Shown here piece by piece: positions 13,401 to 13,877 of a stretch of 37,045 bases of DNA (position 1 is the stretch's first letter; each line of letters opens with the position of its first letter). Under the pieces are notes generated by a model that was not told the DNA's origin, searched no databases, and saw nothing but the letters and a program-made list of their open reading frames with translations. The DNA is taken from the IMG/VR virus record IMGVR_UViG_3300045994_000456; one strand, 5' to 3'. The translations under genes were made by a program, and so were the position numbers. The stretch is from a virus.

Positions 13401-13877
13401 ATGCCCCTAGTTACAATGAAGAAGAAACGTAGGATCGCCCTGATTGCTCATGACAACATGAAAGAAGCTTTATTAGAATGGGTAGAATATAATTCTGAAC
13501 TGCTCGAAAGACATGAACTCATAGCAACTGGAACAACTGGAACCCTGATAGAGAAGCTAGGGTTCAATATATATAAGCTCAAAAGTGGACCTCTAGGAGG
13601 AGACCAGCAGATTGGATCTCGTATTGCGGAAGGCAAGATAGATGTAGTTGTTTTCTTCAGCGACCCACTAGAGCCTATGCCACACGATCCTGATGTTAAA
13701 GCTTTGTTGCGAATCGCGGTCGTGTATAATATTCCAATAGCGTGTAATCGTGCATCGGCGGACTTTATGATAAGTTCGCCCCTAATGACACAAGCATATG
13801 ATAGAATAGTCACAGACTTTTCTAATTACAATAACCGTCTCGGAGACGGAGGAAGTGAGGGAAATGAACCCTGGTAG
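13401..13877 (+). CDS. mgsA: Methylglyoxal synthase
   Basis: RBS AGGAGA 4 nt before ATG 13401. RIALIAHDNMK, LIATGTTG, SGPLGGDQQIG..AEGKIDVVVFF.DPL...PHDPDVKALLR and NIPIACN.A.ADF align block-for-block with E. coli MgsA. Confidence 0.85.
   Translation: MPLVTMKKKRRIALIAHDNMKEALLEWVEYNSELLERHELIATGTTGTLIEKLGFNIYKLKSGPLGGDQQIGSRIAEGKIDVVVFFSDPLEPMPHDPDVKALLRIAVVYNIPIACNRASADFMISSPLMTQAYDRIVTDFSNYNNRLGDGGSEGNEPW

Follow-up and report, generated by a model that had tools for sequence, protein, structure and literature searches.

A complete methylglyoxal synthase gene in a putative huge-phage genome fragment and its possible role as a phosphate-regulated valve

What a virus could gain from a gene for methylglyoxal synthase (MgsA) is the question raised by mgsA, a gene located in a 37,045-nucleotide stretch of DNA (hereafter, the window) of the IMG/VR viral record IMGVR_UViG_3300045994_000456. 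The window is part of a JGI metagenome contig of 71,452 bp, and three other data sets yielded assemblies with an identical arrangement. The mgsA product is a homologue of a cellular glycolytic-bypass enzyme and is needed neither for virion formation nor for genome replication, which makes the gene an auxiliary metabolic gene (AMG). Phage AMG studies have so far centred on photosynthesis, pentose-phosphate pathway, nucleotide and phosphate-uptake genes, and a virus-borne MgsA would add a new lever, namely control of the balance between triose phosphates and inorganic phosphate (Pi) or production of a reactive electrophile. Our analysis indicates that mgsA very probably encodes a complete long-form methylglyoxal synthase (EC 4.2.3.3 type) in a viral location. 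An intact MgsA in a huge phage, working there as a valve, is the best explanation of the locus as a whole, and we hold the chances for and against it to be about even. The role itself, that of a Pi-regulated overflow valve that recycles phosphate and relieves sugar-phosphate stress, is a tentative proposal.

Identity, active site and fold of the mgsA product

The mgsA open reading frame (ORF) is unbroken on the + strand, from the ATG at 13401 to the TAG at 13875-13877 (158 codons). We chose this ATG, and not the in-frame one at 13416 or a TTG further 5' at 13350, because an AGGAG Shine-Dalgarno (SD) motif lies 4 nt upstream of it; SD-like motifs precede 28 of the 48 ORFs of the window, compared with 16% of random positions. 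The resulting N-terminus (MPLVTMKKKRR) is identical in a variant of the protein that is 88% identical to the window MgsA (P0002, from contigs L168 and L169), and the same 158-amino acid product was called by the JGI and Logan gene callers in four independent assemblies. JGI already annotates this product as methylglyoxal synthase. The protein scored 215.9 bits with the NCBIfam equivalog NF003559 (cut-off 84), 187.1 bits with the equivalog TIGR00160 (cut-off 146.9), and 66.8 bits with the Pfam MGS family PF02142 (cut-off 24.1). Its sequence matches in the PDB at E <= 0.001 comprise only 11 distinct methylglyoxal synthase sequences, among them 1vmd (E 1e-56) and the E. coli enzyme 1b93 (E 1e-48). 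The preliminary description, made from the DNA letters, had called the product a near full-length MgsA. The NCBIfam and PDB matches confirm the identity, but the word near can be dropped, as the 158 amino acids align end to end with the 152 of the E. coli enzyme, including the C-terminal helix. The conserved blocks quoted in that description were all found (AHDNMK, ATGTTG, GGDQQ, and PHDPDVKALLR). In terms of annotation, this is an ordinary and easily recognised enzyme gene.

To map functional residues we aligned the window MgsA to E. coli MgsA and to 15 homologues from databases, and all functional residues of the E. coli enzyme fall in invariant columns. The E. coli residues that structural and mutational studies of the enzyme have shown to be catalytic, Asp71 (the base), His98, His19, Asp91, and Asp101, correspond to D68, H95, H17, D88, and D98 of the window protein, and those that bind the phosphoryl group, Lys23, Thr45, Thr47, Thr48, Ser65, and Gly66, correspond to K21, T43, T45, T46, S62, and G63. 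The remaining equivalences are D18 with Asp20, P89 with Pro92, R104 with Arg107, and R146 with Arg150. Loss of the catalytic Asp or His residues had been named beforehand as the finding that would speak against the enzyme; we looked for it in this alignment and none was lost. The PDB matches include His98 mutants of the enzyme (H98N and H98Q; 1s89 and 1s8a), and the window MgsA has a His at the position mutated in 1s89 (H98N). Two lineage-specific substitutions, FFSDP in place of FFWDP and VVYNIP in place of VVWNIP, affect none of the positions with a known function. Methylglyoxal synthase is inhibited allosterically by phosphate, and a salt bridge between a C-terminal Arg and Asp20, reaching to the adjacent subunit, relays the allosteric signal (PMC4133812). 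The allosteric pair Asp20/Arg150 is conserved as D18/R146, and these residues predict that the window MgsA belongs to the Pi-regulated long-form type.

An AF2 model of the window MgsA, built from a 24-sequence alignment, had a mean pLDDT of 86.7 and a pTM of 0.80. It superposed on E. coli MGS 1b93 with TM scores of 0.84/0.88 over 150/151 residues, and the top Foldseek matches of the model were MGS throughout. In length, fold, catalytic and phosphoryl-binding residues, and the Asp20/Arg150 pair, the protein resembles the bacterial long-form enzymes of E. coli (1b93/1egh), to which it is 54% identical, and of Thermotoga maritima (TM1185, 1vmd), to which it is about 62-65% identical. Unlike them, it would be encoded by a huge phage, and its gene appears to be translationally coupled to a 69-amino acid ORF.

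The viral setting and history of mgsA

The assignment of the window to a virus rests on gene content, architecture, and relatives in viral databases. All sizeable ORFs of the window are on the + strand, and mgsA is flanked by viral genes on both sides: an HNH endonuclease, a tRNA cluster, and a phrog_5018 gene upstream, and the genes for SSB, an SF2 helicase (phrog_16), an HD phosphohydrolase, GP88, a DHH phosphoesterase, and a PARP downstream. PHROG families were matched by the helicase, Ro60, PARP, and GP88 proteins, and the 10 kb beyond the right end of the window contain dozens of small ORFs of no known family and an NAD-dependent ligase gene. Protein-level comparison showed that a 545,322-bp IMG/VR contig (L009/L171) is syntenic with the window over most of the region, the helicase being 61% identical, SSB 69%, the HD protein 67%, and the HNH protein 41%. 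Its mgsA, 59% identical to the window copy, lies just upstream of the equivalent replication block. A second viral contig of 259,732 bp (L172) shares the block from 16783 through PARP and beyond and has no mgsA at the corresponding position. Two further huge-phage genomes, LR756500 and LR756501, share with the window only a major vault protein (MVP) gene and a distant PARP, and have neither synteny with it nor mgsA. A megablast search of window positions 10-20 kb against the INPHARED phages gave no match, and a scan of metagenomes with the helicase alignment found only relatives of at most 31% identity. Altogether, the window appears to be part of the genome of a huge bacterial phage. The earlier placement of the gene in a mobile element is thus borne out by the phage genes on either side and by their recurrence in related viral contigs.

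The composition of mgsA (GC 0.430, GC3 0.384) is that of the window, where the means are 0.424 and 0.387, and its synonymous codon usage is typical (rank 15 of 48 genes). In the 88% variant the upstream gene and the overlapping small downstream ORF are shared with the window, and mgsA with its neighbours is kept in at least three phage variants. Comparison of mgsA between the window and the 88% variant gave a dN of 0.059, a dS of 1.50, and an omega of 0.04, which points to strong purifying selection within the phage lineage; dN/dS against the copy of the 545-kb contig is unusable because synonymous sites are saturated. The closest cellular proteins found by tblastn in 185,579 species genomes are 60-69% identical, and over gap-trimmed alignment columns cellular homologues are 60-72% identical (median 66%) and come from Acidobacteriota, Chloroflexota, Nitrospirota, Bacteroidota, Verrucomicrobiota, Proteobacteria, and archaeal metagenome-assembled genomes. 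Because GC content and codon usage are phage-like, dN/dS is as low as 0.04, and the cellular homologues are only 60-72% identical and spread over many phyla, we conclude that mgsA is not a recent pick-up from a host.

A phylogeny had been suggested as a check for acquisition from the host. In a neighbour-joining tree with 200 bootstraps, for which the cellular sampling consisted of the 80 sequences closest to the query, the window copy grouped with its 88% variant (100%), whereas support fell to 37% when the 75% variant P0003 was added and to 3% when the copy of the 545-kb contig was added. The tree therefore confirms the first grouping and contains no supported donor placement. The shared position of the window copy and that of the 545-kb contig argues for one capture, and the tree is silent on one capture versus two. 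A 61-member clade that looked exclusively viral in this tree was discarded as an artefact of sampling only the 80 nearest cellular sequences.

Viral mgsA genes are not confined to this lineage. An alignment-based scan of IMG/VR identified 171 viral contigs with an MgsA relative; single-sequence pattern scans of IMG/VR with MgsA or the helicase had found almost nothing, so that alignment-based scans were needed. Among the best 80 of the 171 contigs, to which our size and context figures refer, 24 are at least 100 kb long and 18 at least 200 kb, and the flanking genes sort these 80 loci and the window into at least 23 mutually unrelated contexts (MgsA itself excluded). The only one of these contigs that is related to the window phage is the 545-kb contig. 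None of the 69 viral copies of sufficient length for scoring has lost a catalytic residue. The other viral proteins, often from jumbo-sized contigs, share family and active site with the window MgsA, to which they are 43-63% identical; unlike it, most belong to the short type, which lacks the C-terminal Arg. Most genes around them code for proteins of no known family, and the rest include those for phosphoesterases, thymidylate synthase, ribonucleotide reductases, NUDIX hydrolases, an RNA ligase, and a UvsX-like recombinase. In INPHARED, 22 records match MgsA, all unannotated metagenomic or fragmentary. Records named as Listeria phage or Enterococcus phage (OR848172, OR846812, OR846639, PQ519991, and others; 1.7-20 kb, with an MgsA about 50% identical to that of the window) may be host DNA under phage names, and we did not count them as examples from cultured phages. 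One viral AMG listed in Lake Baikal viromes is also mgsA (PMC8066274). The statement that the gene is unexpected in a mobile element was therefore too strong, given that listing and the 171 IMG/VR contigs. The window mgsA is a genuine virus-borne metabolic gene, and with similar genes in many other large phages it is not novel in kind: the enzyme family is known, so is the category of phage AMGs, and such genes have already been seen in viral data. Our search of the literature on MgsA in phages, prophages, jumbo phages, and viral contigs found this one passing mention and no experimental work, although many lineages of jumbo phages carry mgsA. What makes the gene valuable is that it seems to be a recurrent AMG of jumbo phages and a well-defined target for a standard enzyme assay; enzyme activity, if confirmed, would raise the question of how phages of this size handle phosphate and sugar-phosphate stress in long infections.

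Possible roles of MgsA during infection

In the proposed mechanism, the phage MgsA would form the usual hexamer in the infected cell and open the methylglyoxal bypass, converting dihydroxyacetone phosphate into methylglyoxal and Pi. Because the phosphate-inhibition apparatus is retained, the enzyme would fire only when triose phosphates accumulate and free Pi drops, a state to be expected when host growth halts and phosphate becomes tied up in the nucleotides and DNA that the phage makes. The methylglyoxal would be handled by host glyoxalases, and the phage would benefit from recycled Pi, eased sugar-phosphate stress, and a host kept working through a long infection. We consider this the best reading of the gene because the allosteric residues are kept, because viral mgsA genes lie in nucleotide-metabolism and replication neighbourhoods, and because the phage carries cell-maintenance genes (MscL, Ro60, and tRNAs). 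In the window, mgsA is located directly upstream of the SSB/helicase/HD/DHH replication block. Three roles had been proposed initially (host takeover or growth arrest, relief of phosphate or sugar-phosphate stress, and action as a toxin), and the allosteric residues together with the genomic neighbourhoods seem to favour the second. Cyanophages provide precedents for AMGs that tune carbon and phosphate, such as talC, CP12, and zwf/gnd, or pstS and phoA. There, too, a host-derived enzyme is kept and presumably tunes pools towards nucleotide synthesis; the enzyme and the pathway differ from those of mgsA.

Several observations weigh against an intact MgsA acting as a valve in a huge phage. Neither a capsid nor a terminase nor a tail or other virion gene was found in the 37-kb window and the 10 kb downstream of it. 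As many as 60 of the 69 scored viral copies are short forms that lack the C-terminal Arg, so tight allostery by Pi is not universal in viral MgsA. Neither the window nor the surroundings of the viral mgsA copies showed a gene for a glyoxalase or for any other means of methylglyoxal detoxification, and without such a gene phage DNA and host ribosomes would be exposed to the electrophile. Finally, the released Pi is merely recycled from the cell's own pool, which means no net gain.

The missing detoxification gene is also one of the points in favour of methylglyoxal as a weapon that arrests host growth, replication, or translation, mediates superinfection exclusion, or kills the cell at a set time. 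Unregulated production of methylglyoxal is bactericidal in E. coli, the enzyme of the window is intact, and the apparently coupled 69-amino acid ORF (orf69) could be a modulator. Such a role is nevertheless unlikely in our view: methylglyoxal would harm phage DNA and the translation machinery in which this tRNA-rich phage invests, no PADLOC defence or toxin model was matched, and viral mgsA neighbourhoods are those of nucleotide metabolism and not of lysis or exclusion modules. The retained Pi-inhibition residues, moreover, point to a regulated valve and away from a runaway toxin (PMC4133812).

Less likely still is that the gene serves as a carbon and redox bypass, converting triose phosphate into D-lactate and pyruvate without GAPDH once NAD+ or Pi runs short, as when NAD+ is lost to NAD-depleting host defences or to the phage's own PARP. 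The methylglyoxal bypass does skip the NAD+- and Pi-dependent GAPDH step, and among the phage's own genes is one for a PARP that combines WGR, regulatory, and catalytic domains. The route yields no ATP, however, and requires host glyoxalases, and since the 260-kb contig shares the PARP but has no mgsA at this locus, the two genes do not travel together.

We find it improbable that mgsA is a passenger, that is, a host gene caught by chance in a variable region and without a role in infection. It does lie in a variable zone rich in tRNAs and homing endonucleases, it is missing at the matching position of the 260-kb contig, and a single origin with the copy of the 545-kb contig is not proven (bootstrap 3%). 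On the other hand, a dN/dS of 0.04 across saturated synonymous divergence, wholly phage-like GC content and codon usage, cellular homologues that reach at most 72% identity over gap-trimmed columns (69% by tblastn), joint conservation with the adjoining genes in at least three phage variants, and recurrence with intact catalytic residues in at least 23 unrelated viral contexts all argue for a gene that is kept for its function.

It would be a considerable surprise if the contig were cellular (a chromosome, a plasmid, or another giant element) or chimeric, with mgsA as a housekeeping gene. This reading could draw on the missing virion genes and on the cellular counterparts that exist for MscL, Ro60, PARP, and MVP. 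It is opposed by the four independent assemblies of the arrangement, the one-strand gene layout with its dozens of family-less small ORFs, the nine clustered tRNAs with an HNH endonuclease, the PHROG matches, and the fact that the syntenic relatives are IMG/VR viral genomes; moreover, a truly cellular mgsA context looks different, as in homologue P0014, which lies in a plainly bacterial context and adjoins aromatic amino-acid biosynthesis genes. Least credible of all is an MGS-like domain with another, non-catalytic or differently catalytic job, because, although this fold is common to regulatory domains of other enzymes, the equivalog cut-offs are well exceeded, all catalytic residues are kept, and the MGS-like domains of carbamoyl-phosphate synthetase and PurH match the AF2 model with TM scores of only about 0.45-0.59 (ranks 27-50), compared with 0.84-0.88 for true MGS.

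Neighbouring genes and other features of the window

The features discussed here and above are collected in Table 1.

Table 1. Location of mgsA, its expression signals, and other annotated features in the window
Feature	Position	Strand	Evidence or remarks
Ro60/TROVE and vWA protein	1213-2829	+	Pfam TROVE 65.8 bits; phrog_850 146 bits
9 tRNA genes (His, Trp, 2 Tyr, 4 Leu, Ile)	2899-12239	+	clustered
MscL, large-conductance mechanosensitive channel	4312-4752	+	JGI precomputed Pfam match
579-amino acid protein with C-terminal NMT1_3 (periplasmic-binding-protein-like), then DUF2491 protein	5583-8047	+	
PDDEXK_5/phrog_5018 ORF	9932-10420	+	3' end overlaps tRNA-Tyr 10324-10409
HNH homing endonuclease	11232-12071	+	phrog_10822; amid tRNA cluster
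Upstream neighbour of mgsA, 279-amino acid ORF (called as 270 amino acids)	12491..13330	+	kept 5' of mgsA in the 88% variant
Intergenic hairpin and U-rich tract	13341..13382	+	between upstream gene and mgsA, just 5' of the SD motif
SD motif AGGAG	13392..13396	+	4 nt 5' of ATG 13401
mgsA, long-form methylglyoxal synthase, 158 amino acids	13401..13877	+	ORF, NCBIfam, PDB, residues, AF2 model
orf69, small ORF of 69 amino acids	13864..14073	+	ATG overlaps last 14 nt of mgsA
MVP-like gene, 879 amino acids	14084..16723	+	Pfam MVP_shoulder 90.4 bits, Vault_3; PDB MVP E 2e-14
Intrinsic-terminator-like hairpin (8 bp, 6 GC), then T-tract	16735..16754	+	first + strand terminator found 3' of mgsA
Eukaryote-style PARP: WGR, PARP regulatory and catalytic domains	28580-29977	+	Pfam; phrog_23333
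Radical SAM protein	35087-36151	+	weak PADLOC viperin matches (pVip, 56 bits, residues 53-156 only)

The product of the upstream neighbour, whose C-terminus aligns with the upstream ORF of contig L168, had no homologue in Pfam, PHROG, PDB, PADLOC, or the databases searched. The hairpin between this gene and mgsA is unusually stable (-28.7 kcal/mol, z -4.4, 0 of 200 shuffles equally stable) and is absent from L168, where the gap between the 2 genes is 11 nt; it probably works as a leaky terminator or as an element for RNA stability. A sigma-70 promoter scan was at background (14 found, 15 expected), an Rfam scan found tRNAs only and no riboswitch before mgsA, and no PADLOC model matched mgsA, orf69, the upstream ORF, or the MVP-like protein.

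On the downstream side, orf69 is called in all four assemblies (L001-L004), and its 14-nt overlap suggests that it is translationally coupled to mgsA. In the 75% variant, mgsA is followed by a 69-amino acid ORF with an identical 14-nt overlap, and L168 has an ATG overlapping the end of mgsA and an orf69-like N-terminus. The small protein had no homologue in Pfam, PHROG, PDB, PADLOC, or the databases searched; the JGI label for it, phage antirepressor YoqD-like, could not be reproduced here. In Bacillus subtilis, MgsA, a short form, is regulated by the small protein Crh. The window also has a candidate small partner in orf69, but without detectable similarity to HPr or Crh, and the analogy is speculative.

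The MVP-like gene begins 10 nt past the end of orf69. Residues 511-848 of its product are collinear with residues 475-831 of eukaryotic MVP (PDB, E 2e-14), and these matches identify it as a full-length MVP homologue. Among 50,697 phage records, MVP matches occurred only in three uncultured huge phages of 462-735 kb, at 40-46% identity. Because of the mgsA-orf69 overlap, the 10-nt gap, and the position of the first terminator at 16735-16754, mgsA, orf69, and the MVP-like gene are probably co-transcribed. This apparent co-transcription, and the overlap of mgsA and orf69 kept in three variants, would fit a single huge-phage module in which methylglyoxal is a timed host-shutdown or anti-competitor agent, orf69 controls the electrophile generator, and the vault-like shell perhaps sequesters it. 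We regard such a module, and the parts that it assigns to orf69 and the shell, as very doubtful: the 545-kb contig has mgsA without an adjoining MVP gene and LR756500 and LR756501 have MVP without mgsA, so the link between these 2 genes is not conserved.

Further from mgsA, the window contains additional genes of interest. MscL is a further gene of the host-maintenance type in the phage. The NMT1_3 and DUF2491 proteins are both kept in the 545-kb contig, and the NMT1_3 part also in the 260-kb contig (4038-4961, with a signal peptide). Just upstream of its mgsA, the 545-kb contig encodes a peptidyl-tRNA hydrolase (Pfam, 216 bits) and an HD-domain protein (7850-8494 and 9285-9716), neither of which is present in the window. 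The match of the radical SAM protein to pVip probably reflects generic radical-SAM similarity. Bacterial and phage Ro60 orthologues are usually accompanied by Y-RNA-like noncoding RNAs. Near the Ro60 gene of the window, Rfam found tRNAs only and no Y RNA, so its partner RNA, if any, would be an unrecognised one or an adjacent tRNA-like gene; tRNA-His (2899-2976) and tRNA-Trp (3256-3334) lie just 3' of the Ro60 gene. The PARP is 53% identical to that of the 260-kb contig and has a distant counterpart in LR756500. The MVP, Ro60, and PARP homologues are arguably more striking than mgsA itself, and a vault-type shell protein in huge phages, seemingly little discussed, may merit a study of its own.

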